Positions 2,335 to 51,446 of a DNA stretch of 64,000 nt are shown in pieces. Below the pieces are notes generated by a model. It did no database searches. It saw nothing but the letters and a program-made list of their open reading frames with translations, and was not told the origin of the DNA. The DNA is from a virus: IMG/VR virus record IMGVR_UViG_3300025237_000002, positions 1 to 64,000 of that record; one strand, 5' to 3'. Numbering within the stretch: the first letter of the stretch is position 1; each line of letters opens with the position of its first letter. The position numbers and the translations under genes are program-made.

Positions 2335-3810
2335 ATGGAAATATTCAGATTGATAGTTTTAGGAATTTTTGTATACCTCATATACCTCATTATTTATGAC
2401 ATCTTCAATAAGAAACATGCTATAATGAGTAACTTCCCATTGATTGGAAGGCTTAGATACATTTTAGAGAAGATTGGACCAGAATTACGACAATACATTG
2501 TAGCTAGTAATAGAGAAGAAACCCCATTTAATAGACTTTGGCGAAATTACATATACGCATCTTCTAAAGGTGAAAATAATCTAACTGGGTTTGGTTCTGA
2601 CGCTGACTTTAACAAAACAGGACATTTCTTTCTTAAAACTTCTGTATTCCCAGTTAAAAATGATAATGTAACAACAATTCCAAGTGCAAAGATAATAGGC
2701 TCATGTAGAGATAAACCTTATAGACCAAAATCTGTTGTTAATATTTCAGCAATGAGTTATGGGTCATTAGGTAAAAAAGCAACTACGGCAAATAATATTG
2801 GAGCAGACATTGCTGGTGCTTACCATAATACTGGTGAGGGTGGATATTCACCCGAATATCATGGTAATGGGGCAGATGTTGTATTCCATATAGGTACAGG
2901 TTACTTTGGTTGTGGGGATACAGATGAAAATGGTCATAGACAATTTAATATGTGGAAGCTTAAAATGCTTGTTAATCTTAATCCAAATATTAAGATGATT
3001 GAACTTAAGTTATCGCAAGGTGCAAAACCAGGTAAGGGTGGAATACTTCCAGCGAATAAGGTAACACCAGAGATAGCAAAAGCAAGAGGTGTAAAAGTTG
3101 GTGAAACAGTTTATTCACCTTCATATCATAGTGCTTTTGATAATGTACACGATATGGTAAATCTGATTGAAGATATTGCTAACGAAACTGGTTTACCAGT
3201 TGGTATTAAATCGGCAGTTGGAAAGATGATTTTTTGGGATGATTTGGCTAGTTTAATGAATCGCACACACAAAGGTCCAGACTTCATAACAATTGATGGT
3301 GGTGAAGGTGGTACTGGAGCCGCACCAATTGCGTTTACCGATAACATGTCACTTCCACTAAGAGATGGGTTTGCACAAGTTTATAAAACGTTTCAAAAAT
3401 ATCATTTAGTAGATAGAATTACTTGGATAGCTTCGGGAAAGTTGGGTCACCCAACAAGAGCAGCAGTTGCATTTGCAATGGGAGCGGATTTAATCAATAT
3501 AGCAAGAGAAGTAATGATTTCTGCGGGTTGTATTCAAGCGCAACAATGTCACACTGGAAATTGTCCTACTGGTATTGCCACACACAAATGGTGGTTAGAG
3601 AAAGGTTTCAATGTAAAAGATAAATCTGAGAGGGTTGGTCTATTCATTAAAACCCTTGTTAAAGATATTCTTGAAGTAACTAATGCAAGTGGATACACAC
3701 ATCCTTGTGAATTTACAATGGACGATGTGATGTTCAATACAAGTGATTCTTCAAGAATGAAAAGCATGGAAGTGCTTTATGGTTATAAAAAAAATATAGT
3801 TAAAAGGTGA
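2335..3810 (+). CDS. FMN-binding glutamate synthase family protein
   Basis: SAMSYGSLG, NTGEGG, ELKLSQGAKPGKGGILP, IDGGEGGTGAAP and the CIQAQQCHTGNCPTGIAT Fe-S motif; N-terminal TM helix. Confidence 0.92.
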   Translation: MEIFRLIVLGIFVYLIYLIIYDIFNKKHAIMSNFPLIGRLRYILEKIGPELRQYIVASNREETPFNRLWRNYIYASSKGENNLTGFGSDADFNKTGHFFLKTSVFPVKNDNVTTIPSAKIIGSCRDKPYRPKSVVNISAMSYGSLGKKATTANNIGADIAGAYHNTGEGGYSPEYHGNGADVVFHIGTGYFGCGDTDENGHRQFNMWKLKMLVNLNPNIKMIELKLSQGAKPGKGGILPANKVTPEIAKARGVKVGETVYSPSYHSAFDNVHDMVNLIEDIANETGLPVGIKSAVGKMIFWDDLASLMNRTHKGPDFITIDGGEGGTGAAPIAFTDNMSLPLRDGFAQVYKTFQKYHLVDRITWIASGKLGHPTRAAVAFAMGADLINIAREVMISAGCIQAQQCHTGNCPTGIATHKWWLEKGFNVKDKSERVGLFIKTLVKDILEVTNASGYTHPCEFTMDDVMFNTSDSSRMKSMEVLYGYKKNIVKR

Positions 3811-18552: not shown

Positions 18553-18555
18553 AAA

Positions 18556-19010
18556 CTTGTTTGTTAAATATATTTGTAGTATATTTGCAGAGTCAAAATT
18601 CAGGAATGGTAAATTGGTAAAGCACCATGGGGGAACTGTGGGATGTAGGTTCGAATCCTTAAGTATAGTGAAAGCTAAACGACTATGGTAGTATTGTAGG
18701 TTCAAGTCCTACTTCCTGAACAACTAAATGGTTAATAATCAACCATTTAAAAAAAGATTAAAAAAAATGTGATTTTTGCTTGTTTATTAAATATATATAT
18801 AGTACATTTGCAGAGTCGAAAGAAAGTTATTATGGTTAACATAAAACTTTTGAAAATAAATTCAAAAAGACTTGTTTATTACAATATAATGTAGTATATT
18901 TGCAGAGTCGAAAGAAAGTTATTATAGTGGTAAGTTATCACAATAAAAACTTTTTTAAATTAAAAGCAAAAAGACTTGTTTATTAAAATAATAAGTTGTA
19001 TATTTGCAAA
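18556..19010 (+). promoter_or_regulatory. Four tandem near-consensus promoters (-7 elements at 18580, 18803, 18895, 18999)
   Basis: Each is CTTGTTT-n-TAyATTTGCArAGTC. Confidence 0.8.
18600..18720 (+). tRNA. tRNA-like RNA with two T-arms or an insertion in the anticodon arm
   Basis: TCAGGAA/TTCCTGA acceptor; D-loop TGGTA; two GTAGG-TTCRA-TCCT arms. Confidence 0.5.
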
Positions 19011-19049
19011 GTCGTTTAGAAATAGACGACACGTTCTTAAAAATATTGA

Positions 19050-19932
19050 AAATAATGGGGTGCTTATACTCCTTCCTCTTCGGGGGATAAGATAAACCTA
19101 GTAATAGGGATAAAGCGATGTATTCAAAGTGCATTGCGTTGAGAAGACTTCTTCGGGAGTTTTAACAATCTATGTAAGCAATTAATCACGAACCATACAT
19201 CGAGGGGCTACTGTCATAGATGAATTGAGTTCACCTCCTAGCTTCGGGGGGTTGAGTTAGAAATAGCAAAAGATGATTAATTAGTTTTTGGTTGAAACAT
19301 GTAAAAAGTGGATAGGCTGAATTCATCATAATTTGTTATGGAATGTTACCTTGAAATGCGGCACCTAACAGAGTCGTAGATTGATAGGAGATGAACCTTC
19401 GGGTGATTCTTTAAATGTAAATCTAATTAATGAAGAAATGACGTGACTGTAAAAAGTTGCAACGGGATGTTGATAGCTAAAGTGCTCAAAAGGCAACACG
19501 CTAGTCAATCGCAAGACACATCCTGTAAGAGAGAGCATCGCTATACAACTAAGGTTAATAGCCTTAATTTTTAATTTGATAAAAATTGTAAAGAGAAAGT
19601 TCTTGTGGACATGGATAAAAAATTAAGTTATTCTACTGAAAAATGTAGATGATGGAGGCTCTCAAGGCTGAAGTTAAAACGAGAGAAGTATCGTTAGTAA
19701 GAGGTGGGAACCTTTGCATCCCTTCCAAGGGAACTAGGTAATGAAAGTTGTTTATATCAATTCATGGTGAGAAAGGTGAAAGCCTAATCGTTCTCTTCGG
19801 AGAATAAAAGAGTTTGCAGTTGCTAATTTAAAACTGTCTTAGTGATACCTACGGACACGAAAGTGAAAGTGTGTGATATAGGGAAACCGAAAACGAAAGG
19901 TATTATAAACGCCCAAACACTCAAGCGTTTAA
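19050..19932 (+). ncRNA. Giant structured non-coding RNA (~880 nt; GOLLD/ROOL-class candidate or new class)
   Basis: No ORF of 60 aa or more; five CTTCGG motifs and many GNRA-capped stems; strong promoter and boxA-like site upstream; tRNA-like gene directly downstream. Confidence 0.75.
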
Positions 19933-19934
19933 TC

Positions 19935-20009
19935 GGGGATGTAGCTTAATAGAGAGCGGCTTGGTTTCAAATCCAAGAGGATGTAGTATCGATTCTACCA
20001 TCCCCACCA
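19935..20009 (+). tRNA. Aberrant tRNA-like RNA (8-nt anticodon loop TTTCAAAT, encoded CCA)
   Basis: GGGGATG/CATCCCC-ACCA; D-loop lacks GG; T-arm GTAG-TATCGATT-CTAC. Confidence 0.6.
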
Positions 20010-20059
20010 ATAGACTTGATAAAGCCTCTTCCTTATTGGAACGTAATTAAGTATAGTAT

Positions 20060-20129
20060 GGGTATACAATTAAGGTTCTCACCAACCTTTAAGGTTGTAT
20101 CATAGGTTCAAATCCTTCTATACCCACTA
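20060..20129 (+). tRNA. tRNA-like RNA (acceptor plus T-arm, no canonical D-arm)
   Basis: GGGTATA/TATACCC-ACTA; AGG-TTCAAAT-CCT; 3' end shared with 23870-24061. Confidence 0.45.
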
Positions 20130-20136
20130 AAATTAA

Positions 20137-20205
20137 AGAGGTCTCGTCTAATTAAAGATGGTCAGCGTAAGTTGACAGATGTGGTTGGAAACACCATAGT
20201 CTCTA
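20137..20205 (+). tRNA. tRNA-like RNA with a GTAA tetraloop in place of the anticodon loop
   Basis: D-arm GTCT-AATTAA-AGAT; GTCAGC-GTAA-GTTGAC; T-arm GTGGT-TGGAAAC-ACCAT. Confidence 0.45.
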
Positions 20206-20382
20206 AAGAAGTTTAGGTTCGGTAGTCCGATAGTGAAGTACAAACGATAGTTTAACGACAACCTTTATACTAAAATAGTTCTCATTGGCTATTCAATTCA
20301 ATGGGTATGACCCAACTTTAATGTTGGTTGATACTACAAGGGGAGTGTCGTAAAAACCTACAAGTTAGTCGTGTAGCGAAAA

Positions 20383-20454
20383 GGGAATGTCGTCTAATAG
20401 AAGGCAGCTGGCGTGAAGCTGGAAAATGTAGTATCAAATCTACCATTCCCACTA
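20383..20454 (+). tRNA. Aberrant tRNA-like RNA (5-nt GTGAA loop)
   Basis: GGGAATG/CATTCCC-ACTA; same D-loop AATAGA and T-arm type GTAG-TATCAAAT-CTAC as 19935. Confidence 0.55.
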
Positions 20455-20662
20455 AAGGATATGCACGAATGCAGTTAAGCGATACCTTTCAAATCGGAGG
20501 AACTGTACAAGGAGTAACTGAAATAGGTTTTCCAAAATAGATTTTTTGAGTAGTGGGTGTAAATACCGTATAAAGGTAAGCAACAAGAAAGAAAAAATAA
20601 TAGTAAATCCTAAGACTTGCGAAAGCTGGTTCAATAACAAATAGTTAGGTAATCTATTAAAT

Positions 20663-20743
20663 GGGGGTATAGCCCACACCTGTCGTGAAGATGGTGAAGT
20701 GGTAACTATGCTGAGAATGTAACTGTGAATGTTGCTACCTCCA
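20663..20743 (+). tRNA. tRNA-like RNA
   Basis: GGGGGTA/TACCTCC-A acceptor; GTAAC-TGTGAAT-GTTGC T-like arm. Confidence 0.35.
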
Positions 20744-20826
20744 CAAATTGAGTTTAGTTTTGCGGTTAAGTTCTCAATTAAATAAAAAACTGGTGGGGTG
20801 TTAAACCCCATCGTAAACGCCCAATT

Positions 20827-20902
20827 GACACTGGGATAGCTTAGTAAAGAGCAACCCGAAATTATAAGAGGTAGTGTGAGGTATTGAATCCTCAATCAGT
20901 GT
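20827..20902 (+). tRNA. tRNA-like RNA ending the first ncRNA operon
   Basis: ACACTGG/TCAGTGT; GCTT-AGTAAA-GAGC; TGAGG-TATTGAAT-CCTCA; T-run follows. Confidence 0.4.
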
Positions 20903-21008
20903 TTTTTAAAAATAAATGAAAATAAATTAGGATGTTTGAATACTTTTATGTATTTTTGCATACTTATTATAAACGCACTAAGTGCAAAACGATTAAAAAA
21001 TAGAAATT

Positions 21009-21110
21009 ATGACAACAGTAACGACATATACGAAACAGTATCAACCGAAGGGCGGGAAGCCACAAGGTCAACTGAGTATGCGTTGTTATAACGATGAAGA
21101 AGAAGGATAA
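21009..21110 (+). CDS. 33-aa attenuator leader peptide MTTVTTYTKQYQPKGGKPQGQLSMRCYNDEEEG
   Basis: A-rich start after the promoter element TATTTTTG (20951-20958); codons 2-21 are almost all Thr/Tyr/Lys/Gln/Pro/Gly. Confidence 0.8.
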   Translation: MTTVTTYTKQYQPKGGKPQGQLSMRCYNDEEEG

Positions 21111-21138
21111 GTTCTTAATCATAATAAACAATATAGCT

Positions 21139-21170
21139 AAACCCAGTTGAAATCTTCAACTGGGTTTTTT
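21139..21170 (+). terminator. Attenuator terminator upstream of the tRNA array
   Basis: 13-bp stem AAACCCAGTTGAA/TTCAACTGGGTTT with a T-run; the 5' arm can instead pair with TCAACTGAGT (21068-21077). Confidence 0.85.
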
Positions 21171-21235
21171 GCGTTCTATAGGTTTTTCATCACCTGATAA
21201 AAAAGATGAATCTTTGAAATATTGTATTTTTTTAT

Positions 21236-21308
21236 CGGGAAGTATATCAATTGGTAGATTACGTGCTTTGGGAGTACGAGGTTGGAGGTTCGAGTCCTCT
21301 CTTTCCGA
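21236..21308 (+). tRNA. tRNA-Pro(TGG)
   Basis: CGTGC-TTTGGGA-GTACG; canonical T-loop. Confidence 0.9.
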
Positions 21309-21368
21309 CTTAGGGAGACTGTTATTAATTCATAGGACCAATTGTGGTAATCATAGAATTAAATGTAT

Positions 21369-21444
21369 CGGGGTGTGGTGCAGTAGGCGATACACGCCTG
21401 TTTTGGAAACAGGAGGTTCGAGGGTTCGAATCCCTTTGCCCCGA
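21369..21444 (+). tRNA. tRNA-Pro(TGG)
   Basis: CCTGT-TTTGGAA-ACAGG; C1-G72, A73. Confidence 0.9.
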
Positions 21445-21450
21445 CAAAAA

Positions 21451-21600
21451 ATAAACTTGTAGTTTAAAATGGCAACAACAAGTATGTATGATAATTAGCT
21501 GAACAGGTACCGTCAGTGAAAGGTGTATAGAAAGGGGTTGCAGAATTAGAATGTGTGGTAGAGGACCGCAAGATGTGAGTTCAAATCTCACCAAAGTTAT
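21451..21600 (+). ncRNA. tRNA-like RNA with a large central insertion
   Basis: D-like arm, ~75-nt interior, T-arm GTGAG-TTCAAAT-CTCAC, imperfect acceptor. Confidence 0.4.
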
Positions 21601-21608
21601 TTTTATAT

Positions 21609-21703
21609 CTACCAATGCACGAGTCGGTTTAAGTGGCTGGGCTTGGACCCCAGTGACAGCTTCATGAGGTTGCTGTCCGTAGGTTCGAATCCTACTTGGT
21701 AGA
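21609..21703 (+). tRNA. tRNA-Pro(TGG) with a long variable arm
   Basis: CTGGG-CTTGGAC-CCCAG; variable arm GACAGC...GCTGTC. Confidence 0.8.
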
Positions 21704-21769
21704 CGAGTTGGAGACTGTTATTAATTCATAGGACTGTCAGATACAGTGTATAAGCATAGAATTAAATCT

Positions 21770-21843
21770 TGGGATATCGACTAGCGGTCCAAGTCATCTG
21801 GTTTTGAACCAGAAGAGCGAGGGTTCGAATCCCTCTATCCTAA
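21770..21843 (+). tRNA. tRNA-Gln(TTG)
   Basis: TCTGG-TTTTGAA-CCAGA. Confidence 0.9.
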
Positions 21844-21911
21844 CTACCAATATATTGTCTATTTAGTCGATATATTGGCAAAATAGATAACATATTGTCT
21901 ATTTTATTACT

Positions 21912-21996
21912 GGGGGTGCGCCAAAGTTGGAGAGTTGGGGCGGTCTGTAAAACCGTTGCGTAAGCTGAGTAGGTTCGATTCCTATCACCCCCACCA
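21912..21996 (+). tRNA. tRNA-Tyr(GTA)
   Basis: GCGGT-CTGTAAA-ACCGT, long variable arm, encoded CCA. Confidence 0.92.
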
Positions 21997-22006
21997 GTAT
22001 ATATAT

Positions 22007-22079
22007 TCCCTCGAAGCTCAAGTGGACGGGCACCCCGCTTTTAACGGGGAGATTGCGGGTTCGAAGCCCGCTGGGGGAA
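22007..22079 (+). tRNA. tRNA-Lys(TTT)
   Basis: CCCCG-CTTTTAA-CGGGG. Confidence 0.9.
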
Positions 22080-22124
22080 CTGAGAGAGTTATTACGTTCT
22101 CTTCGACAAGAAAAAACGTAATTT

Positions 22125-22206
22125 GGGAGTATTGAGCAACTGGTCGCTCAGCAGATTGTAAATCTGTCGCCTTCGGGCATTGTGGGTTCGAATCCCTCTA
22201 TTCCCA
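22125..22206 (+). tRNA. tRNA-Tyr(GTA)
   Basis: GCAGA-TTGTAAA-TCTGT; variable arm GCC-TTCG-GGC. Confidence 0.9.
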
Positions 22207-22208
22207 CT

Positions 22209-22276
22209 AGAGTTCGTCTAAGCTAAAAGGCATCGCCTGAACGGTGAAAATGTAGGAGAATACCCTATACTCTTAA
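22209..22276 (+). pseudogene. Degenerate tRNA (possibly Phe GAA)
   Basis: Cloverleaf with a non-canonical T-loop AGAATAC and a short acceptor. Confidence 0.35.
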
Positions 22277-22280
22277 CTAT

Positions 22281-22391
22281 GGCTATAGTACTACGGTGTA
22301 CCATTCGATGAATATATTGAGTTGAATGAGAGTGGATGTGTGAGTGTTACATCACATCTTCGGTTGGGTTCGAATCCCTAGGTAGCCACCA
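22281..22391 (+). ncRNA. Enlarged tRNA-like RNA with encoded CCA
   Basis: GGCTAT/GTAGCC-ACCA; GTAC-TACGGT-GTAC; long CATTC/GAATG and GATG/CATC arms; T-loop TTCGAAT. Confidence 0.55.
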
Positions 22392-22419
22392 GATGTATGT
22401 TTTTGTACATTAATAATAT

Positions 22420-22493
22420 ACCTTCGTAGCTCAACTGGCTAGAGCACCTGACTTTTAATCAGGGGGTTGGGGGTTCGAGTCCCTTCGGGGGTA
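22420..22493 (+). tRNA. tRNA-Lys(TTT)
   Basis: CCTGA-CTTTTAA-TCAGG. Confidence 0.93.
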
Positions 22494-22536
22494 CTGAGAG
22501 GGTTCTATGCTCCCTTAACACAGAAAAAGCATAACT

Positions 22537-22611
22537 GCTACCTTAGTATAAAGGCGATTACTCTGCATTTGTAACGCAGAAATCTCGGTTCGATTCCGTG
22601 AGGTAGCTCCA
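22537..22611 (+). tRNA. tRNA-Thr(TGT)
   Basis: CTGCA-TTTGTAA-CGCAG; encoded CCA. Confidence 0.85.
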
Positions 22612-22692
22612 AAACTACTAACTCATACCGAAAAGTATGTTAATTTGGATGATTATGTATACCACTAATCATCCAAGTGTTAGAACAAATAT

Positions 22693-22765
22693 TGCTCCAT
22701 GGTGTAATTGGTAACACGTCTGTTTTTGGTGCAGAAGAGTGTGGGTTCGAGACCCGCTGGAGTAA
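22693..22765 (+). tRNA. tRNA-Gln(TTG)
   Basis: TCTGT-TTTTGGT-GCAGA. Confidence 0.9.
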
Positions 22766-22772
22766 CAAATAT

Positions 22773-22846
22773 TGCCCTATGGTGTAATTGGTTAACATAC
22801 GAGATTTTGGCTCTCGTGAGTGTGGGTTCGAGTCCCACTAGGGCTT
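22773..22846 (+). tRNA. tRNA-Gln(TTG)
   Basis: CGAGA-TTTTGGC-TCTCG. Confidence 0.9.
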
Positions 22847-22888
22847 CAAAGGGAGATGTTCACCTAACATCTTTAAAAATAGGTTTAT

Positions 22889-22975
22889 CCCCTCATAGCT
22901 CAGTTGGTTTGGCGAAAGCCTTAGAGCATCCGTCTTTTAAACGGAGGGTCGTAGGTTCGAATCCTACTGGGGGGA
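22889..22975 (+). tRNA. tRNA-Lys(TTT) with a GGC-GAAA-GCC hairpin inserted in the D-loop
   Basis: TCCGT-CTTTTAA-ACGGA. Confidence 0.85.
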
Positions 22976-22982
22976 CAATAAA

Positions 22983-23053
22983 CGATGTGTGGTGTAATGT
23001 TAGCACGAGTTCCATTGGGGGACTTAGAAGAGGTTCAATTCCTTTCTCATCGA
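22983..23053 (+). tRNA. Degenerate tRNA, probably Pro(TGG)
   Basis: C1-G72, A73; irregular anticodon loop containing TTGG. Confidence 0.5.
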
Positions 23054-23058
23054 CAAAT

Positions 23059-23144
23059 GCGGTGTTAGTGTAATGGACAAATATTCTAGATGAAAACACG
23101 CAACCATTCAGGTTGAGATAGAGGTTCGATTCCTTTATGCCGCT
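23059..23144 (+). tRNA. Degenerate Gly-like tRNA (D-loop insertion, 5-nt loop ATTCA)
   Basis: GCGGTGT/ATGCCGC, U73, canonical T-arm. Confidence 0.45.
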
Positions 23145-23321
23145 CTAAAAATGATTGATATGAAAGAAATGAAATTTAGATATACTGGTGAATTATCTGA
23201 AGAAGCTAAGGTTAAATTAGATAAATTAAAGTTAAGAAAAGAAACAACATTGAAAAACCTACAAGATGATTATGACTCTGGTAAGTTTGACGATGAATTT
23301 AAAAACCTATAAAATTATGTT

Positions 23322-23513
23322 ATGGATATTGAGAATTATTCAATCGGAGATGTATTAAGGAACAAACAAGGAATTAATGGTAAGGTGATTGGAAAGACGA
23401 TAAATTCAATTAATTTATATCATACAGCTAGAAGTAGTAAAGGTATTAATTGTACTCAATGGTACACATTACAAGACATAATTAAAAATTTTAAACATGC
23501 CGTCATAGTTTAA
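23322..23513 (+). CDS. hypothetical protein inside the tRNA array
   Basis: 63-aa ORF whose 3' end overlaps the tRNA-Thr 5' end. Confidence 0.5.
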   Translation: MDIENYSIGDVLRNKQGINGKVIGKTINSINLYHTARSSKGINCTQWYTLQDIIKNFKHAVIV

Positions 23514-23574
23514 GTGGTTAGAATCCTAGTGTGGTATATTAGGGGTGTCGCTTCGATTGCGATTGATGGCTCCA
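23499..23574 (+). tRNA. tRNA-Thr(GGT)
   Basis: CTAGT-GTGGTAT-ATTAG; encoded CCA. Confidence 0.8.
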
Positions 23575-23620
23575 CGACCAGCTGATAGTCTGGGATAACA
23601 ATAAATTAAAACTATCAAAA

Positions 23621-23694
23621 GCGAGTAACGCATAAGTGGTGGTGCGCCAGCCTTCCAAGCTGGAATAGAGTCGGTTCGATACCGTCTACTCGCT
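23621..23694 (+). tRNA. tRNA-Gly(TCC)
   Basis: CCAGC-CTTCCAA-GCTGG; U73. Confidence 0.9.
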
Positions 23695-23789
23695 CAAAAA
23701 AGGGGTGCTTTAATATAACCAATGACAATAGCGTTATAAATTGCTGAACTTTCTACCAAATTGATTTTTGTCGATGATATAAGGTAGTT

Positions 23790-23862
23790 GTCCTATTAGT
23801 TTAACTGGATAAAACTGGGGGTGCTAAACCCTCGGATGTGGGTTCGAATCCCATATAGGAAA
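23790..23862 (+). tRNA. tRNA with CTA at the anticodon position (amber-suppressor-like, G33)
   Basis: GGGGG-TGCTAAA-CCCTC; canonical D- and T-arms; 1-72 mismatch. Confidence 0.65.
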
Positions 23863-23869
23863 CAATTAA

Positions 23870-24061
23870 GGGTATACTTTTGGTGTGATGAACCGACCCT
23901 CCGAGAATGGAGGTGCTTTAACTAGCTAAGTATTGAAAACGTTGAGAACATAAACTAAAGTATAGATGTACGAATACTGGGTCTGAATTATGTTAGTAGG
24001 CAAGTAAGTGGATACACGACTTCCAATCGGTATCTAGGTTTGAAACCTTCTATACCCACTA
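23870..24061 (+). ncRNA. ~190-nt RNA closed by a tRNA-like acceptor and T-arm
   Basis: GGGTATA...TATACCC-ACTA; 3' part resembles a Gly(TCC) D/anticodon/T region. Confidence 0.45.
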
Positions 24062-24118
24062 AAAACTATTTACTTATATTTAATTTTTTAGTATATTTGT
24101 TTATAAAAATTAAATATT

Positions 24119-24418
24119 ATGTATGATGAAAAAGTAAGTATGGGAAATAACCCTATGACAGTTAAAAAGTTGTCAGAATTAGAAAATATAATTTCTAACT
24201 TTAAAGTAGAATTAAGTAAATTAAGTGAAAATAATTATGAATTACTTAATAAGGTAGATAAAATGGTTGGTTGCGAACTACAAGATGATTGTGCAGAAAA
24301 ATCAAGTCCAACGGATGAAAATATTGTTGATGTCCTCAACGAATGTATCCGTGAATTAGGTTATAAAAATAATAATTTTAGAGAGCAATTAAGTAGATTA
24401 GGTGGTATTGTTGGATAA
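24119..24418 (+). CDS. hypothetical coiled-coil protein
   Basis: 99-aa ORF after a promoter motif. Confidence 0.6.
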   Translation: MYDEKVSMGNNPMTVKKLSELENIISNFKVELSKLSENNYELLNKVDKMVGCELQDDCAEKSSPTDENIVDVLNECIRELGYKNNNFREQLSRLGGIVG

Positions 24419-24479
24419 CCATTAAGAATGATTACTGGAGTAGAGTACCTTAATGGTCAGGTTGATAACCTCTACAAAT

Positions 24480-24551
24480 GCGGGAATAGCTCAACGGTAG
24501 AGCGTTAGATTACCAATTTAAAGGTTGTGGGTTCGAATCCCATTTCCCGCC
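24480..24551 (+). tRNA. tRNA-Gly(ACC)
   Basis: Gly-type body GCGGGAA/TTCCCGC; TTAGA-TTACCAA-TTTAA. Confidence 0.85.
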
Positions 24552-24560
24552 CAATACAAT

Positions 24561-24646
24561 GCAGTAGTCGCATAGAGGTCGATTGCCCCAGATTTCCAAT
24601 CTGGTAAGATAATATCACATCGCTGGTTCGAATCCAGTCTACTGCT
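24561..24646 (+). tRNA. tRNA-Gly(TCC) with a long variable arm
   Basis: CCAGA-TTTCCAA-TCTGG; ~17-nt variable region. Confidence 0.85.
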
Positions 24647-24709
24647 CAACACGAGTTTCATCTGAAACATGTATTTTAAACATGGTTTCAGACATAACTC
24701 AAACATTAT

Positions 24710-24793
24710 GCCTACGTCCCATAGAGGTCGATTGGACTAGATTTGTAATCTAGAATGGAAACATCATCGTGGGTTCGAATCCCTCCGTAGGCT
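24710..24793 (+). tRNA. tRNA-Thr(TGT) with a long variable arm
   Basis: CTAGA-TTTGTAA-TCTAG; variable arm ATG-GAAA-CAT. Confidence 0.85.
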
Positions 24794-24860
24794 CATAAAA
24801 AATACAATTTTCTTGTGTAATCCAATTTTTTTCATTATCTTTGTAATCTAAATACAAACT

Positions 24861-26377
24861 ATGAGAGGCACACTTGAACCACTTCAATTAGAAGAAGGTA
24901 AGTCTTACAACATTAAGACTTCACATACACACAATTTCAAATCTGGTAAAATTCACATTGATAAGGTTTATCCTAGTCCATGCTACTCTCCTATGGATAG
25001 TATGATTGATAATGCTGAAGATATGGTTGTTTTTAGAATTTGGTCCAAAAGACAACGTTGGGTTTGGTTTGTTTCAACGTATTGGGAAATATGTTTGTAT
25101 AATGATTGGAAATATGAAAAATAATTATTCATACACTTGCACACCTCAAATTAATTTCTTATATTTGCAATAACATATTAATTATGGTTTATAAAAACAA
25201 TTGCCAGGCTCTTAATTATTACGATGAATTAGGAAGACCTGTATATAAAAATAAACATCAATTCGCAAGTCATGAATTGGCTGTTAAAGCTTGTAAAATT
25301 TATAATCTTAAGGAACAACAAATTAAAAAGTTGGTAACATATAAGTGTAATATTTGTTTTAAATATCATATTGGTAGAAATGGTAATGACATTAAACCTA
25401 AGTATATTAAAAGAATAAAACAAGAAAACATTATAAATCGTAAATCCAAACATCAATTTAAAATAATAGGAAAAATAGAGTTATGAATTTTGAAAAATTA
25501 GCAAACAAGGTTATAAAACGTTTAAAAAAAGAAGGTGTAGTATGCTACCTTTGGCATTCAACCGCTAGTGCATACATTCGTTTTCAAGATTGTAGAATGG
25601 GGTCTATTAGACTAGGTGACCATAAAGGTCGTAGCCAATATGGTTATATGTGGAACATACGTAGTGATTTCCCTAAAGGTCATAAGAAATGGCACAAAAT
25701 TGAAGGTAAGTGGAGATTTTATGCGCACAGTGAAAATTGGATTGCGATACTTCCACATATCTTAGAAAGAAAATCAAGAGTTGAACAGTGGGGTGAAAAT
25801 AAACATAAATATTTCATACCTGAACATAAAAAAAAATAATATGAGTGATATGAGATTTAGTATCGAGGAAATTAAGAAGTACATTCTATCACAAGATAGT
25901 ATGGGAGATATTCTTTATAATTTAAACGAAGCGAAAATTATTGAAGCTAATACGATAAGGTGTCCAAATTGTGAAGTAGAAACTTCAGAAACAATGTTGG
26001 AGGTCTTCAATGGTAATTGTGAAACATGCGCTGAGGAATTAGAAGAAGATGAGTAATATGGAAACTAAAAATAAATAACGATGAATAACTCAAAGGAAAT
26101 TGAAAAACTTAAACGAGAAGTTGAAGAACGTAAATTAAAAATTGAGAGTCTTTTGACTAATCAAAATAAATTCGAATCTTTACCAGAGAACTATAAATTG
26201 GCTGAAAAAATTCACAGTAAAACTTGTAGTTGGAATCATACGGATGGTTGTAGTTGGGAATATGAAAATTGGGATGGTAAATTAAGACAATGTAGGAGCC
26301 ATTATGTAGTAATTGCTGATAGGGTATTAAAAAAAGTGCCTTATGAAATGGCTGCAATGACTTTAGATAATATATAA
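24861..26377 (+). CDS. Run of small hypothetical ORFs (24861, 25184, 25483, ~25841, 26081)
   Basis: Tightly packed + strand ORFs with promoter motifs at ~24836 and ~25160. Confidence 0.55.
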
Positions 26378-26787
26378 TGAAAATATTTAAAGAATTTAAG
26401 AATTTTGCGGTCAAGGGTAATATGATGGATATGGCTATCGGTATTATCATTGGGGCATCTTTCAACAAGGTTTTAAACATAATGGTAAAGAAGGTATTAC
26501 TTCCACCATTGAGTTACATATCTAGCGGTGTTAACCTAAGCGAGAAGCGTGTAATTCTTCAAAACGCACAAGAAGGTATGGAAGAGATTTCAATCCAGTA
26601 TGGGGCACTTATAGAAGCCTTCATCGATTTCTTTGTAATAGGTCTGGTCCTATTCATTGTGGTTAAAATAATGAATAGAATTAAAGATAAGGCTGACGAT
26701 GTTACAGATTTAACATTCAGAACACCTAAGAACATTCAATTATTATCTAGTATTGAAACTGAATTAAAGAAACTAAACGAAAAATAA
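26377..26787 (+). CDS. mscL: Large-conductance mechanosensitive channel
   Basis: KEFKNFAVKGNMMDMAIGIIIGASF; YGALIEAFIDF; C-terminal LLSSIETEL. Confidence 0.92.
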   Translation: MKIFKEFKNFAVKGNMMDMAIGIIIGASFNKVLNIMVKKVLLPPLSYISSGVNLSEKRVILQNAQEGMEEISIQYGALIEAFIDFFVIGLVLFIVVKIMNRIKDKADDVTDLTFRTPKNIQLLSSIETELKKLNEK

Positions 26788-29838: not shown

Positions 29839-30246
29839 ATGAATGATAATACAATTTTAGAACACTATGGTTGGACCATTGAATGTGAATCACCATTTGA
29901 AATACGACATGAAGATGGTTCGTTTGCCAGTGGGCAAGCAGCTTATACAGTTCTAATAGACTTAGTAGAAGACTATGAATGTGAAGTTATTAAGAAACCG
30001 ATTGAATTAACATTTGGACCTGATAATCATTTCGACCCTGTTGCAATAAAACATAACAATAAGGGTGAACGAATTGATTTCGCTAAAACGGTAAGATGGT
30101 TTATTAATAACGCTGAAAATTCTATTGAAAATTCTTACGATGAAGGTGCGCCAAGGCGTGTTGAAATGTATCAGTTATGTAATAGTCTTAGAAATCAATT
30201 AAAGGCTCAATTATCAAAAGAACAAATACGAGAAATTAAATTATGA
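29839..30246 (+). CDS. hypothetical protein
   Basis: 135-aa ORF. Confidence 0.6.
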   Translation: MNDNTILEHYGWTIECESPFEIRHEDGSFASGQAAYTVLIDLVEDYECEVIKKPIELTFGPDNHFDPVAIKHNNKGERIDFAKTVRWFINNAENSIENSYDEGAPRRVEMYQLCNSLRNQLKAQLSKEQIREIKL

Positions 30247-31013
30247 ATAGAGGTTACGGAGCAATATTAGGTGATTTAGCGGGGAAACCCTTTGAAAAGA
30301 AGTTTAGTATTAAGAAAAAGGATATCAAGGTTTACGCTGAAGATACAAACATTACTGATGATTCAGTAATGACATTAGCTACAATGGATGCTATTTTAAG
30401 CAACATTGATTACCAAACAGCATATCGCTATTGGGGTAATAAATACTTTAGTGATTACTATGGTAAATCGTTCAAGCTATGGTTGAAAGACCCAGCTATG
30501 AAGATGGATTCATATGGTAACGGATGTCTTATGAGAATGTCACCAATACCTCATTACTTCCGTAACAATGACTATTCTTCAATCATAGAATCAGTTGGTA
30601 GTTGTACAACTTCTCATAATCATGCATATTCAAGAAAGGCTGTTATTATATTGAATTACATTTATAATATGATTTATGAAGGTAAAACAAAAGTTGAGAT
30701 TTGGGATTGGGTTAAAGAGAATTATCCATTACCTAAACGATTTAATAAGTTTGTAGAGATAGATGCAACCTCACAAGGTACTTTACCTTACGTGTTACAT
30801 TGTTTCTTATCCACTACATCAACACACGCTTGTATTGAAATGGCGATTGGTTATGGTGGTGATACAGATACAAATGCGTCAATTGCTGCTGAATTATCAG
30901 CAACATTTTATGACGATATTTCGAAAGAAGATGTCGAGTATGTTAACAGTCATCTAGATGATTTTCAACTAGATACGTTAACAAGGTTTAATAATGCATT
31001 AAATGAAATTTAG
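30243..31013 (+). CDS. ADP-ribosylglycohydrolase (DraG/ARH family)
   Basis: GAILGDLAG, TDDSVMT, SYGNGCLMR, GGDTDTNASIA. Confidence 0.92.
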   Translation: MNRGYGAILGDLAGKPFEKKFSIKKKDIKVYAEDTNITDDSVMTLATMDAILSNIDYQTAYRYWGNKYFSDYYGKSFKLWLKDPAMKMDSYGNGCLMRMSPIPHYFRNNDYSSIIESVGSCTTSHNHAYSRKAVIILNYIYNMIYEGKTKVEIWDWVKENYPLPKRFNKFVEIDATSQGTLPYVLHCFLSTTSTHACIEMAIGYGGDTDTNASIAAELSATFYDDISKEDVEYVNSHLDDFQLDTLTRFNNALNEI

Positions 31014-32270: not shown

Positions 32271-33074
32271 ATGATAAAGCAATTCAGAGACGAATACGCT
32301 TGGTTAAGTAATATGACCCCTTGTATAATGACATACAAGGGTATTGAATATGCTACAAGTGAACATGCATACATGTCGGCAAAGTCTGATGATATGGAAT
32401 GGAAATCAAGATGTGCTGACAAACAAGTACCAGCAAAGGTAATAAAACGAGAAAGTAAAGATATCATTCTAATAGATAATTGGGAACTCTTTAAGTTCTT
32501 CGTAATGAGTGAGGTGATAGATATTAAATTTTCACTAGAACCCTTTAGAAGTCAATTGTTAGCTACTGGCGATGTTGGTATTGAAGAAGGTAATACCTGG
32601 AATGATTTATTCTGGGGTGTTGACAATTACACTCGTAAAGGTCATAACCATTTAGGGAATATTCTAATGGAGAAAAGAGACCTATTAAACTGTGAAGAAT
32701 CAAATAAAAAAACAAATATGGATATTAAAGATAAAATAGATTTTACAAAATATATGGAGTTGTCAAAACAACTAGATATTAGAGTTGGTATCATAAATGA
32801 TGCTGAAAAAATACCTAAGAGTTTCGGACTTAAATTAACGGTTCAATTCGCATGTGGTGATGATAATCATGTTACCAAGACAGCGTTCACTAACTTAGGT
32901 AAGACACACGAACCTGAAGACCTAATTGGTCTTCAATGTCCATTCATTGTTAACCTTGAACCAAGTGTTATCAAGGGTGTTACCAGTGAGGTAATGATTA
33001 TGGTTGGTGAAGAAATTGGTGGTGGGTTACAAGTTAATCCAAGTAATTATGTATCTGGAGCAAAATTAATGTAA
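32271..33074 (+). CDS. NADAR (YbiA) domain fused to a Trbp111/CsaA-like tRNA-binding OB fold
   Basis: WLSNM, EHAYMSAK, LLATG..IEEGN.WND.FWG, G.NHLG.ILM; then LDIRVG..., NLEPSVIKGVTSEVMI. Confidence 0.85.
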   Translation: MIKQFRDEYAWLSNMTPCIMTYKGIEYATSEHAYMSAKSDDMEWKSRCADKQVPAKVIKRESKDIILIDNWELFKFFVMSEVIDIKFSLEPFRSQLLATGDVGIEEGNTWNDLFWGVDNYTRKGHNHLGNILMEKRDLLNCEESNKKTNMDIKDKIDFTKYMELSKQLDIRVGIINDAEKIPKSFGLKLTVQFACGDDNHVTKTAFTNLGKTHEPEDLIGLQCPFIVNLEPSVIKGVTSEVMIMVGEEIGGGLQVNPSNYVSGAKLM

Positions 33075-34673: not shown

Positions 34674-35213
34674 ATGAGTGTTAAGAATAACAGTAGATTT
34701 TTGAGTTTGGTTTTGAGACATAAACCTGAAACCATCGGTCTTAAATTAGATAAGAACGGTTGGGTTGATGTTGATGTGTTGTTAACTCAATTAAAAGAAC
34801 ATGACCGTGAAATGACGATGTTAGAATTAACTGAGGTTGTCACCACCAATGATAAGAAGCGTTTCGAGTTTAACGATGAAATGACCATGATTAGAGCGGC
34901 ACAAGGACATAGCGTGAAGGTTGATTTACAACTGAAAACAAAACGTCCACCAATGGAGTTATTTCATGGTACAGTGCCTAGATTCCTACCTGACATTAGG
35001 AAAGGTGGTCTAAAGAAAATGAAACGTCATGCGGTACATCTAAGTGACGATATCAAGACTGCTGAAAAAGTTGGCTCACGTAGAGGTAAAGAAATTATAT
35101 TAACTATTGAAACAGGTGCTATGTATGCGGATGGATTTAAATTCACCCAATCAAAGAACGGTGTTTGGTTAGTAGACAATGTACCAAGTAAGTACATCAA
35201 AATCAAAGAGTAA
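34674..35213 (+). CDS. kptA: RNA 2'-phosphotransferase (Tpt1/KptA)
   Basis: LSLVLRH, KKRFE, IRAAQGHS, FHGT, RHAVHLS. Confidence 0.93.
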   Translation: MSVKNNSRFLSLVLRHKPETIGLKLDKNGWVDVDVLLTQLKEHDREMTMLELTEVVTTNDKKRFEFNDEMTMIRAAQGHSVKVDLQLKTKRPPMELFHGTVPRFLPDIRKGGLKKMKRHAVHLSDDIKTAEKVGSRRGKEIILTIETGAMYADGFKFTQSKNGVWLVDNVPSKYIKIKE

Positions 35214-35678: not shown

Positions 35679-36461
35679 ATGAAAAAAGATGATTTAGGGG
35701 ATAGAATGAAAGGTTATGAAGCCGTTACTAAGTACAAGTTGCTTAGAAGAGGTTATACTATGATTAGAATTGATGGTAAGGCTTTTCACACCTATACAAA
35801 AGGTCTTATACGTCCATTTGATATGGGGTTGGTTGAAGATATGGATGCTACTGCTAAGTATCTTTGTAAAGAGATTCAAGGTGCTGTATGTGCATTCGTT
35901 CAATCTGATGAGATTAGTATTTTGTTATGTGATTTTGAAAATAGAAATACAAGCGCATGGTATGATAATTCATTACAAAAAATGTGTAGTGTTTCAGCAT
36001 CATTGGCAACAGCTAAATTTAATCAATTAAGAACTTCAAGAGTTATAAGTGCTGGAAAAATACTAACTGAATTTGATAATATTGTATTAGCTATATTTGA
36101 TTCAAGAGTTTACCAATTACCAGCAAAGTATGAGGTTGAAAACTATATGATTTGGAGGCAACAAGATACTGTTAAGAATAGTATTTCTAGTGTTGCACAA
36201 TCAATGTTTTCACACAAAGAATTGAATGGTAAGAATGGAAACCAGAAGCAAGAAATGATGTTTCAAAAAGATGGTACGAATTGGGATGGTTTTGACCCTA
36301 AGTTAAAGAGGGGTAGAATGATTACAAAAGAGATATATGAGAAGGAACCTGACGTTATTAGAACTAGGTATGTGAGTAACGCACCACCAACATTTACACA
36401 AGATAAGGATTATTTAAATGAATTAATCCCAGATAGAGAAATTAGTAGATTATTAGTATGA
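35679..36461 (+). CDS. tRNA-His guanylyltransferase Thg1-like protein
   Basis: RMKGYE, RIDGKAFH, QSDEIS, FDSR, WRQQD. Confidence 0.92.
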   Translation: MKKDDLGDRMKGYEAVTKYKLLRRGYTMIRIDGKAFHTYTKGLIRPFDMGLVEDMDATAKYLCKEIQGAVCAFVQSDEISILLCDFENRNTSAWYDNSLQKMCSVSASLATAKFNQLRTSRVISAGKILTEFDNIVLAIFDSRVYQLPAKYEVENYMIWRQQDTVKNSISSVAQSMFSHKELNGKNGNQKQEMMFQKDGTNWDGFDPKLKRGRMITKEIYEKEPDVIRTRYVSNAPPTFTQDKDYLNELIPDREISRLLV

Positions 36462-37243
36462 GAACATTAGTTATAGGTGATATTCATGGAGCTGGCTTAG
36501 CACTTAAACAAGTGTTAGAGCGTTGCGAATTCGACTATGAAAAGGATTTATTGATAACCATTGGTGATATTGTTGATGGTTGGGAAGATTCATTTATGTG
36601 CGTTGAAGAATTACTTAAGATACCAAATAGAATTGATATTATAGGTAATCACGATAATTGGTTTAGGTCATTTATTGACTCAGGAGTTCACGATACGAAT
36701 TGGGGTAACGGTGGTTTATCTACCGCAAAGTCTTACGCAAAGGCTGCTGGTATTGAGTTGTTAGTTCAAAAGCAAACAAATGAATACTTTGAACCAAGTG
36801 ATAAGTTTACTTTGAATTTGAATTCTGGTGATATTCCTGATTCTCATAAGAGTTTCTTTAGAGGTCAACACAAGTACTATAAGGATAATGATAACAATCT
36901 ATTCATCCATGGTGGTTTTGCTCGTAGTTACCCATTAAGAGAGCAAATGGATTATACTTTTATGTGGGATAGACATTTAATCACTCAAGCAATGTCAGCT
37001 AAATCAACTGGTACAAAATTAACATTTGTTGAAGAGTTCAATCAAATATATTTAGGTCATACCGCAACATTAAATTGGAAGACCGATAAACCAATTTATG
37101 CTGATAAGATTTGGAATGTAGATACTGGTGCTGGTGGTGGTGGTAAATTGACGATAATGGATATTGATACCAATAAATATTGGCAATCAGATAACGTACC
37201 TAGTCTGTATCCAGACGATGAACATAATTTAAGAAATAAATAA
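36458..37243 (+). CDS. Calcineurin-like metallophosphoesterase
   Basis: GDIHG, GDIVD, GNHD, HGG, GHT, DTG. Confidence 0.92.
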   Translation: MRTLVIGDIHGAGLALKQVLERCEFDYEKDLLITIGDIVDGWEDSFMCVEELLKIPNRIDIIGNHDNWFRSFIDSGVHDTNWGNGGLSTAKSYAKAAGIELLVQKQTNEYFEPSDKFTLNLNSGDIPDSHKSFFRGQHKYYKDNDNNLFIHGGFARSYPLREQMDYTFMWDRHLITQAMSAKSTGTKLTFVEEFNQIYLGHTATLNWKTDKPIYADKIWNVDTGAGGGGKLTIMDIDTNKYWQSDNVPSLYPDDEHNLRNK

Positions 37244-40999: not shown

Positions 41000-42034
41000 A
41001 TGGTGGAAATACAAAAAATGATTGACCCAAAAGATTATGAAATCGGAGTTGCAGTAGCTAGATTTCAAGGGAAGAGATTACACGAAGGACATAAACAAAT
41101 GCTTGACCTTATAACTAGTAATCATAATAAAGTGATTATCTTCTTAGGGGTACCTAAAATTAGTAATACGAGAAGAAATCCATTGGACTTTGCAACTCGT
41201 AGGTTAATGATTCAAAAATTATACCCTAATGTGGTAATCCTACCACAACATGACCAACGTTCTGATGAAGTTTGGTCAAGAGCATTAGACGCTCAAATAT
41301 CAACGCCATTCGGAGATGGAAAAGCTTTACTATACGGTAGTAGAGATTCATTCATACCACATTACGAAGGTAAACATACCACAACAATATTAACTGATAT
41401 TCCAAACGTAAGTGGAACTGAACTAAGAGATAAGGTAGCAAGTGAAATTCTTCCTAACTCTAGTTTTAGAGCGGGTGTTATATATGCAAATTATGCACGT
41501 AGACCAGTCACTTATTCAACCGTTGACGTAGCAATACATAACGACAAGGGTCAATTCTTATTGGCTAAAAAACCACACGAGAAGCATTGGCGATTCGTTG
41601 GTGGGTTTGTAGATAGAGAAGATGAGAGTGATGAACAAGCCGTTATTAGAGAGGCTTCGGAAGAAACCAATGGTTGTCACATAGGTAATATAAGATACAT
41701 ATTATCACAAAAAGTTGATGATTGGAGATATCGAAGAGAAGCAGATGGTATTATGACACGTTTATTCCTTACATCATATGTTTTTGGTAATCCTAAAGCA
41801 ACTGATGACCTTGCAAATGGTGGTGATTTGCAATGGCACGATATATCTTACTTCACAGAAGCTAGACGTATTGAAAATGAAATTATGCCTGAACACCAAA
41901 GTTTGATGACTCAATTAATTGAGAAAATCTATACTGATAAAATGGTTCCTAACTTGGGTAGATTCCACGTACCATTTATAGAGGAACGTGACCCTGATGC
42001 TGTAGTAGAAAACACCGAATTTATACCTAAATAA
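41000..42034 (+). CDS. nadM: Bifunctional NMN adenylyltransferase / ADP-ribose pyrophosphatase (NadM-Nudix)
   Basis: ARFQ..LHEGH, RNPL, SGTELR; Nudix box GGFVD..DES...IREASEET. Confidence 0.88.
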   Translation: MVEIQKMIDPKDYEIGVAVARFQGKRLHEGHKQMLDLITSNHNKVIIFLGVPKISNTRRNPLDFATRRLMIQKLYPNVVILPQHDQRSDEVWSRALDAQISTPFGDGKALLYGSRDSFIPHYEGKHTTTILTDIPNVSGTELRDKVASEILPNSSFRAGVIYANYARRPVTYSTVDVAIHNDKGQFLLAKKPHEKHWRFVGGFVDREDESDEQAVIREASEETNGCHIGNIRYILSQKVDDWRYRREADGIMTRLFLTSYVFGNPKATDDLANGGDLQWHDISYFTEARRIENEIMPEHQSLMTQLIEKIYTDKMVPNLGRFHVPFIEERDPDAVVENTEFIPK

Positions 42035-50576: not shown

Positions 50577-51446
50577 ATGAAACACATCGTAAGAATTGCT
50601 CCGTCACCGACTGGACAATTACATATAGGAACATTAAGGACTGCGTATTTTAATTGGTTGATAGCCAATCAAAATCCCGACAGCACATTCATTGTGCGAA
50701 TCGATGACACAGATTTATCTCGTTCTCAAGATGACCTCATTCAACCAATATTTGATTCCTTAACCAGTTATGGTTTAAAATGGGATTTAACATTCAGACA
50801 ATCAAGTAGATTTAGTCGATACCAAGATTTGGCACAAGACTTAATCAACAGTGGTAAAGCTATTAGAAGTGATGGTGCCGTTATGTTAAATAATGTACAC
50901 GCATATAGTTTAGATGCTGATGATGCAGATTTAAAATGGACTGATACCATCACAGGACCTAAAACTAAGATATCACCAGATTTGGGTTTCTTAATAAGAA
51001 ACCAAGTGATTATCAAAAGTGATGGTTCGCCAACATATAATTTCGCAAGTGCGGTTGATGATATGGATTATGGTGTAACTTGGATTGTTAGAGGTACTGA
51101 CCATATAGTTAATACCTATAAGCAAGTAATCTTCTTTAACTTATTTGGAAAGCCATTACCATTATTTACACACGTAGGTTTGGTTTGTCATCCATCAGGA
51201 AAGAAGGTATCAAAGAGAGATAGTGATTCAATGGATTTATCACAATACATCCCTGATGCATTATTAAACTACGTATTACGACTTGGATGGTCACCAAGTC
51301 AAGACGACAAAACTAATAATATAATTCCAATGGACAAAGCAATTAACTTGTTTTTATCTGGTGGTAAAATGAGAGCACCTAACAGTAAATTAGATTTAAC
51401 TAAATTACAATGGTACAATAAAAAATACACAAATGGCAATAATTAA
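50577..51446 (+). CDS. Glutamyl-tRNA synthetase catalytic domain only (GluQ-like architecture)
   Basis: RIAPSPTG.LHIGT, RIDDTD, VRGTDH, KVSKR; 289 aa with no anticodon-binding domain. Confidence 0.85.
   Translation: MKHIVRIAPSPTGQLHIGTLRTAYFNWLIANQNPDSTFIVRIDDTDLSRSQDDLIQPIFDSLTSYGLKWDLTFRQSSRFSRYQDLAQDLINSGKAIRSDGAVMLNNVHAYSLDADDADLKWTDTITGPKTKISPDLGFLIRNQVIIKSDGSPTYNFASAVDDMDYGVTWIVRGTDHIVNTYKQVIFFNLFGKPLPLFTHVGLVCHPSGKKVSKRDSDSMDLSQYIPDALLNYVLRLGWSPSQDDKTNNIIPMDKAINLFLSGGKMRAPNSKLDLTKLQWYNKKYTNGNN

Follow-up and report, generated by a model that had tools for sequence, protein, structure and literature searches.

Why would a phage keep, directly downstream of a giant non-coding RNA, a row of tRNA-shaped elements almost none of which can decode? 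The question is raised by the first 64 kb (hereafter the window) of a 110.5-kb IMG/VR virus record, IMGVR_UViG_3300025237_000002, which is rated 31% complete. The phage genes all lie on one strand, the G+C content is about 32%, and several signs point to a large Bacteroidota phage as the source, including a type IX secretion sorting domain carried by one window protein and promoters of the TTG / TAnnTTTG pattern. The region 5' of a tRNA array (positions 21236-24794, with 20 ARAGORN calls) comprises 2.7 kb without credible genes (18553-21235), for which a BLAST search against GenBank phages returned no match. Two ORFs overlapping the tRNA-shaped elements (147 aa on the minus strand and 70 aa on the plus strand) were rejected as genes because they cross conserved RNA modules; neither has a PHROG match, and the one Pfam match obtained is at chance level (E 0.033, below the cut-off).

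GOLLD RNAs are among the largest bacterial and phage RNAs and build a 14-mer cage. The giant RNA noticed in a preliminary description of the window, made from the letters alone, is a divergent GOLLD (19055..19930, plus strand; extent judged by homology). Its Rfam match covers positions 19462-19768 and, at 42.1 bits (E 1.5e-8), does not reach the cut-off of 150, in which it differs from published GOLLD loci; in two relatives, L023 and L035, the full GOLLD model aligns (65.9 and 62.1 bits, respectively), the alignment stopping 5-6 nt 5' of the first tRNA-like unit. The tRNA-like units lie outside the consensus GOLLD structure (RF02032), as separate, adjoining modules. The last GOLLD hairpin (19907-19930, plus strand) has a covarying stem and a loop, AACACUCAA, that is identical in nine lineages, and in all nine of them a tRNA-shaped unit begins 3-7 nt past this hairpin. 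The 10-mer TAAACGCCCA, said in the preliminary description to precede two of the units, indeed occurs exactly twice in the 64 kb (at 19906 and 20814; 0.04 copies expected).

The lineages come from viral and metagenome contigs, which were scanned with protein anchors and with DNA patterns. The initial scans yielded one relative, and a pattern derived from the conserved 5' start of GOLLD brought the set to nine distinct lineages sharing that start (the window, L002, L007, L022, L020, L023, L027, L035 and L039). Proteins encoded near the island are just 23-67% identical between the window and L002; the stretch from the promoters to the start of the RNA is 91% identical. All lineages have a common layout, in which promoters are followed by GOLLD, by clustered small structured modules, tRNA-like ones among them, and then, in the 3' part, by a promoter, a short conserved ORF and a strong terminator, after which comes an ordinary tRNA array. 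In the window, a regex scan finds four tandem Bacteroidota-type promoters (TTG, ~19 nt, TAnnTTTG) within 18557..19006 on the plus strand, among 22 plus-strand matches in the window as a whole (compared with 3.7 in shuffled sequences); a scan for E. coli-type promoters is uninformative here, the host belonging to Bacteroidota. Promoters cluster upstream of the RNA island only, with the exception of one pattern match at 20732-20762, and the first T run following a stem is found at 20903, with no classic terminator earlier.

Six cloverleaf-like units had been proposed to start at positions 19935, 20060, 20137, 20383, 20663 and 20827, and all six are present there (units 1 to 6 in what follows). 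Five of them adopt an acceptor-closed multi-arm shape by minimum free energy alone, and unit 5 does so only in the centroid structure; the fold z-scores are, in order, -3.0, -2.2, -2.7, -2.8, -1.1 and -2.0, unit 5, at only -1.1, being carried by comparative evidence. The Rfam tRNA model (RF00005, cut-off 29) gives 44.6 bits for 19935-20006, 27.8 for 20383-20451 and 20.5 for 20060-20126, and no match at E<=10 for units 3, 5 and 6. ARAGORN, run as the preliminary description had suggested, calls none of the six with default settings; its mitochondrial mode calls unit 1, with a four-base anticodon. The odd anatomy reported earlier is borne out as well: the D-loop GG is absent from all six units, most of them lack a canonical T loop (the canonical 7-nt T loop is found in unit 2 only), and the middle arms do end in loops of 8 nt, a GTAA tetraloop or a GTGAA pentaloop. 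Almost none of the units can decode; the loops of their anticodon arms vary from 3 to 8 nt, without any common sequence.

A loose cloverleaf scanner is noisy and misses 4-bp T stems, so family-specific anchors and covariance models were used instead to follow the units into related phages. Four of the six can be assigned to three RNA families (A, B and C), whose members recur in as many as eight further phage lineages. The earlier suggestion of a maintained family rather than decay thus stands as far as maintenance is concerned, and has to be modified in that there is no single family, but three conserved families plus two outliers. The search for homologues with covariation called for in the preliminary description was successful: families A, B and C and the type represented by unit 6 are all kept in relatives with compensatory changes. 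Across five whole phage records (54-187 kb), the models of families A and C (R1 and R2) match nothing outside the GOLLD island. Scans for exact signature motifs of the two families, a kind of search that diverged members escape, gave no match in 185,579 prokaryote genomes, and among viral contigs the motifs are confined to this clade.

Family A comprises 13 members from eight lineages, including unit 1 (19935..20009, plus strand; 8-nt middle loop, 8-nt T loop and an encoded CCA; R1 68.2 bits, fold z -2.97) and unit 4 (20383..20451, plus strand; an arm capped by a GTGAA pentaloop, and an 8-nt T loop; R1 78.2 bits, fold z -2.83). As previously noticed, the D loop is common to these two, and so is the T arm, with its stem of 4 bp and the 8-nt loop TATCRAWT. 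The whole family is built as a full cloverleaf whose T arm has a 4-bp stem and a loop of 8 nt and whose D loop lacks the GG, and each member folds as a cloverleaf on energy alone. When eleven members are aligned with MAFFT, with no use of structural information, 93.9% of the cells of the acceptor, D and T stems are paired, and 13 of the 15 tested pairs have changed on both sides in a compensatory manner, the acceptor stem covarying at all 7 pairs; none of 500 shuffles paired as well, and slid partners gave only 35-48% pairing. U8, G10, A14, A15 and U48 do not vary, nor does most of the 8-nt T loop, and the members have the 7-bp acceptor stem, the discriminator and the U8-A14 and R15-Y48 combinations of the tRNA core. 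The pattern fits a tRNA core (U8-A14, A15-U48) with an elbow rebuilt in a way that dispenses with G18G19. The middle loop measures 3, 5, 6, 7 or 8 nt, with no sequence common to the members, although in five of the 13 the arm ends in a GNRA-type tetraloop or a G-N-N-A-A pentaloop. Family-A members score 43-78 bits under R1, compared with at most ~25 bits for the real tRNAs of these phages, the best-scoring of which, tRNA-Gly(UCC), is a likely ancestor of the family.

Unit 3 (20137..20205, plus strand) is found in the window only: it forms a cloverleaf by minimum free energy (z -2.73) in which the D arm is that of family A, a GTAA tetraloop caps the middle arm and the T arm is non-canonical, and no homologue was found for it by BLAST. 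From its fold and its R1 score (24.7 bits, E 0.006), it may be regarded as a weak relative of family A. Unit 6 (20827..20908, plus strand; z -1.97) has a D arm like that of family A, a T loop of 8 nt and a weak middle arm, and the 3' strand of its acceptor stem runs into the T run. It gives no R1 match at E<=1, and a homologue in L027 (2918-2996) has the same T arm and two compensatory acceptor pairs.

The remaining two units depart further from the tRNA plan. Unit 2 (20060..20126, plus strand) represents family B, with an acceptor stem, one long arm, a canonical T loop and no D arm. Two more copies, both in L002, differ from it by two compensatory acceptor pairs each, their T loops are canonical, and their long arms differ wholly in sequence and still pair; support for this family is thinner, as it comes from two lineages only. 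Unit 5 (20663..20743, plus strand; R2 77.1 bits) belongs to family C and has a G3.U70 + A73 acceptor, a long bulged arm, a T loop TGTGAAT and no anticodon loop. The family has nine distinct members, from six lineages and 76-83 nt in size. They share an acceptor stem of 7 bp, a long bulged arm lacking the two-base linker that normally precedes it, an A-rich joiner that is conserved, and a 5-bp T stem with the loop TGTRART, and 13 of 25 pairs show compensatory change. G3.U70 occurs in six of the nine, with pairs 4, 5 and 7 covarying around it, and is replaced in the other three by G-C (L023, 3250-3328), C-G or A-U; A73 is present in eight. The combination is that of the alanine identity set, which we take as a lead rather than a finding. 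One copy in L002 (14840-14922) lies 5' of GOLLD rather than 3' and has its own Bacteroidota-type promoter; it is therefore a gene in its own right there. None of the three families has the 7-nt anticodon loop, U33 and conserved anticodon of a decoder, and families A and C also lack the canonical elbow made of D-loop G18G19 and a 7-nt T loop.

These islands also contain a fourth type of mimic, with canonical D and T arms and a 30-45-nt insert in place of the anticodon arm (window 18600-18720; L020 6354-6443; L027 1782-1872 and 2398-2489; L035 1763-1855; L039 1068-1165); L027 and L035 have one insert sequence in common. A further observation from the GOLLD-linked island of L027 is a RAGATH-1 hammerhead-like match at 2291-2368 (48.9 bits, cut-off 56.3, E 2.3e-5).

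Between the units lie other conserved RNAs. Module X (20300..20382, plus strand), a conserved RNA of several hairpins, ends exactly at the first base of unit 4; in four lineages (the window, L023, L035 and L027) it lies directly against the 5' end of a tRNA-like unit, the unit being of family A, family C or the insert-bearing type. Module Y (20452..20537, plus strand) starts directly after the discriminator of unit 4 and is 92% identical over 88 nt to its counterpart in L027, far above the flanking sequence; it follows the 3' end of a tRNA-like unit in both lineages. Neither module has an Rfam match. A third conserved region, made up of hairpins (20744..20826, plus strand) and 78% identical over 181 nt to L023, holds a GTTAA-capped stem (20794-20810) and the second copy of the 10-mer (20814-20823). 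The sequences that trail the units resemble those of real tRNAs. A C follows the discriminator in all 19 Rfam-supported window tRNAs (18 from the array and the insert-bearing one at 18600), and 15 of the 19 have a C-N-A trailer, compared with a background of 5.4%; the same C-N-A trailer is found in units 1, 2, 4 and 5 and in all 13 family-A members.

Since most of the mimics are kept by compensating mutations in related phages, they are probably working parts of the GOLLD transcript, and the central question concerns what they do there. We tentatively favour, at a little short of an even chance, the explanation that they are RNase P/RNase Z handles by which one non-coding transcript is cut into GOLLD and a set of small RNAs, the handles being released as stable look-alikes of tRNAs. 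Positions 19055-20908 would form one non-coding transcription unit driven by the four tandem promoters, and its transcript would consist of GOLLD followed by a mosaic of small structured RNA modules, punctuated by the six tRNA-shaped units. The units retain features read by the tRNA end-processing enzymes of the host, namely a 7-bp acceptor stem stacked on the T arm, the tRNA core, the discriminator and a C at position 74. RNase P would cut on the 5' side of each unit, at unit 1 generating the 3' terminus of mature GOLLD, RNase Z or another 3' enzyme would act past the discriminator, and the units would be set free as stable, non-decoding tRNA look-alikes. A phage RNase P RNA was sought with RF00010, which gave no match at E<=10.

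We infer co-transcription and cleavage from the unit that adjoins GOLLD in nine of nine lineages, the covarying stems combined with a free middle loop, the tRNA-like trailers, the position of modules X and Y at unit edges, the promoters lying mostly upstream, the restriction of R1 and R2 matches to the island and the hammerhead-like ribozyme in the L027 island. Co-transcription of GOLLD with tRNAs has already been suggested (PMC5737381). Of the roles listed in the preliminary description, those of processing signal and of partner to the giant RNA agree with the same anatomy: a unit abuts the 3' hairpin of GOLLD in every lineage, and conserved RNA modules start or stop exactly at unit boundaries. 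The family C copy of L002, being independently promoted, speaks against a single transcript, and the promoter-like match at 20732-20762 could be the start of a second one. The elbow is the part of a tRNA touched by the specificity domain of RNase P and by the arm of RNase Z; as the elbow is rebuilt here without G18G19, where the enzymes make contact, cleavage could be poor. Punctuation alone would, moreover, need nothing beyond an acceptor/T minihelix, and it leaves unexplained why the D stem is conserved and why there are core triples, a middle hairpin and a family-specific 8-nt T loop. With the strict core, the private elbow and the middle hairpins unaccounted for, the released RNAs probably do more, and the strict conservation of the odd elbow and core, from which we infer a second job of the mimics, suggests that the by-products have a function of their own.

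It is useful to consider in this context that a tRNA-like element at the end of a long RNA has parallels elsewhere. At the 3' end of MALAT1, mascRNA recruits RNase P and RNase Z to make ends. The mascRNA, the MEN-beta element and the t-elements of plant mitochondria are, like the mimics described here, non-decoding tRNA-like folds that follow a long non-coding RNA or lie between transcripts (Rfam RF01684; PMC1920247), and the tRNA-like fold directly 3' of a long non-coding RNA, here after a spacer of 3-7 nt, is seen in all nine phage lineages. However, those systems are eukaryotic or organellar and unrelated in sequence (RF01684 gives no match at E<=10 in 19900-20950), whereas here several families stand in a row and cleavage is only predicted. 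Family C can be compared to the tRNA-like domain of tmRNA and to the AlaRS minihelix, with which it shares a G3.U70 + A73 acceptor, a T arm, the lack of a D stem and a long helix in place of the anticodon arm; it differs in being only ~80 nt long, having no mRNA-like part and a non-canonical T loop, and in that G3.U70 is not universal. ARAGORN finds no tmRNA in the window. YrlA-type Y RNAs (RF02553) are likewise non-decoding small RNAs that mimic tRNAs and occur in phages too, but the mimics have no long closing stem for Ro60; no Y RNA is detected by Rfam, and no TROVE domain occurs in the five phage records. In phage T4, the stable RNAs C and D are reportedly small non-tRNA RNAs co-transcribed and processed with the phage tRNAs; they are not known to have any sequence or family relation to the mimics, and T4 lacks GOLLD.

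Published GOLLD loci (Rfam RF02032) sit in phage and prophage tRNA islands (bioRxiv 10.1101/2024.12.08.627333; PMC6582537; PMC12990946), and they resemble the present one in that a giant structured phage RNA adjoins a tRNA array, with tRNAs or a pseudo-tRNA in or beside GOLLD. Here, in contrast, GOLLD has as its neighbours non-decoding tRNA look-alikes that form conserved families and have a rebuilt elbow, and whereas the published linked tRNAs occupy an internal linker of GOLLD, the mimics are fixed at its 3' end. We found no paper in the searchable literature on conserved non-decoding mimic families at the 3' end of GOLLD. In this clade, then, the GOLLD 3' end is joined to a conserved tRNA look-alike and followed by further families of non-decoding mimics, which adds well-supported covarying families to the short list of such mimics known from phages and yields predictions on the site and enzyme of GOLLD 3' end formation, on the accompanying small RNAs and on the possible alanylation of one of them.

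What the released mimics might do brings us to the other readings. In the first, they would act as decoys, sponges or dedicated substrates of proteins recognizing the acceptor/T half of tRNAs. Such proteins could be toxins of the host by which tRNA acceptor ends are modified or cut, or tRNA-end enzymes encoded by the phage itself, and family C would additionally be charged by AlaRS via G3.U70. We consider this rather unlikely on its own, though it is compatible with punctuation as a second job. A decoy for anticodon nucleases, as proposed in the preliminary description, does not find support and is unlikely, because the anticodon arm is precisely the unconserved part (loops of 3-8 nt, often GNRA-like, with no common sequence). 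Conservation resides instead in the acceptor end, the core and the family-specific elbow, so that any decoy would be expected to have a target recognizing the acceptor/T half. In family C, G3.U70 and A73 persist in six of nine members while the neighbouring pairs covary; the absence of G3.U70 from the other three counts against the idea. The gene context, too, fits a role at tRNA ends, if only circumstantially. Within 30 kb there are genes for an ADP-ribosylglycohydrolase, an unusual NADAR-tRNA_bind fusion, Tpt1/KptA, a Thg1-like 3'-5' polymerase (a tRNA 5'-end repair enzyme), a metallophosphoesterase and a 289-aa protein with the GluRS/GlnRS catalytic core that resembles GluQ-RS (30243-31013, 32271-33074, 34674-35213, 35679-36461, 36458-37243 and 50577-51446, respectively), and the Thg1-like gene recurs in three of five related records. 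The mimics are thus tied to a genome that invests in tRNA-end repair enzymes; on the other hand, genes for RNA-end and ADP-ribose metabolism are common in large phages. No CCA-adding enzyme is encoded in the 110-kb record of the window, which is a fragment, and neither SmpB nor Ro60 in the five phage records, also fragments.

A more speculative proposal, which we think unlikely to hold, is that GOLLD and the trailing mimics are one device, in which the cage RNA would be produced along with a fixed set of mimics having a private elbow and genuine acceptor ends; the mimics would be bait or adaptors for enzymes that read tRNA ends, and GOLLD would store or present them. The targets might be host immunity directed at tRNAs, AlaRS, or the Thg1-like, Tpt1 and NADAR-tRNA-binding proteins of the phage. 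Should it be true, it would offer the first functional handle on GOLLD.

It is improbable, in our view, that the mimics are partners or tethered cargo of the GOLLD nanocage, linked to it or docked via GNRA-type loops of the middle arm, even though tRNAs linked to GOLLD have been proposed as cargo of the cage (bioRxiv 10.1101/2024.12.08.627333; PMC12990946). The mimics do always lie directly 3' of GOLLD, five of 13 family-A members and unit 3 end in GTAA or in G-N-N-A-A loops that might fold like GNRA, and the free hairpin at 20794-20810 is capped by a loop of the same type. However, the remaining family-A members have unrelated loops, the pentaloops would have to be GNRA-like, and the tRNAs of the published proposal are in the internal linker and not at the 3' end.

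Pseudo-tRNAs are frequent in phage tRNA islands, and it is very improbable that the mimics are just more of these, i.e. functionless decaying duplicates of phage tRNA genes. A pseudo-tRNA has been reported within GOLLD itself (PMC6582537), and the resemblance of family A to the D arm of the phages' own tRNA-Gly(UCC), two acceptor mismatches in the family-A copy of L020 and the lack of a homologue of unit 3 could be read as decay. Yet compensatory changes keep every stem despite the divergence of the neighbouring proteins, the family-specific features foreign to tRNAs are invariant, and the position next to GOLLD is fixed in all lineages. Conserved, covarying families restricted to the GOLLD island are therefore not decayed tRNAs; for families A, B and C decay is contradicted, and unit 3 is the only one for which it is conceivable.

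Hardly credible, finally, is the reading that some units are unusual decoders, either stop-codon suppressors or four-base readers: several first-position units do carry UCA, UUA, CUA or UUG in 7-8-nt loops, and the amber loop of one in L027 (at 1255) is canonical, having both U33 and A37, but loop length and sequence are unconserved, U33 is present in only three of seven first-position units and units 2-6 have no anticodon loop, which excludes decoding for nearly all units. Stop-codon recoding in this genome was considered and rejected, ORF coverage and the longest ORF being no better with TAG or TGA read through. In the array itself, ARAGORN calls a 'CUA' tRNA at 23790-23862 with G at position 33 and a G1-A72 mismatch, which is doubtful as a suppressor because the genome shows no such recoding.

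Two other features of the window may be mentioned. Between the mimic cluster and the tRNA array lies an ORF of ~33 codons rich in Thr, Tyr, Lys, Gln, Pro and Gly codons (window 21009-21110, with a terminator at 21139-21167; L002 16808-16912; L007 2127-2234; also in L020 and L023). The ORF and its strong intrinsic terminator are conserved in at least five lineages, and together they look like a leader-peptide control element. Elsewhere, the phage carries host-like auxiliary genes encoding an MscL-like channel (named by eye), a NAMPT-like phosphoribosyltransferase, a NUDIX protein and a glutamate-synthase-domain protein (26377-26787, 43808-45475, 41000-42034 and 2335-3810, respectively), of which the phosphoribosyltransferase and the NUDIX protein are predicted to serve NAD salvage.
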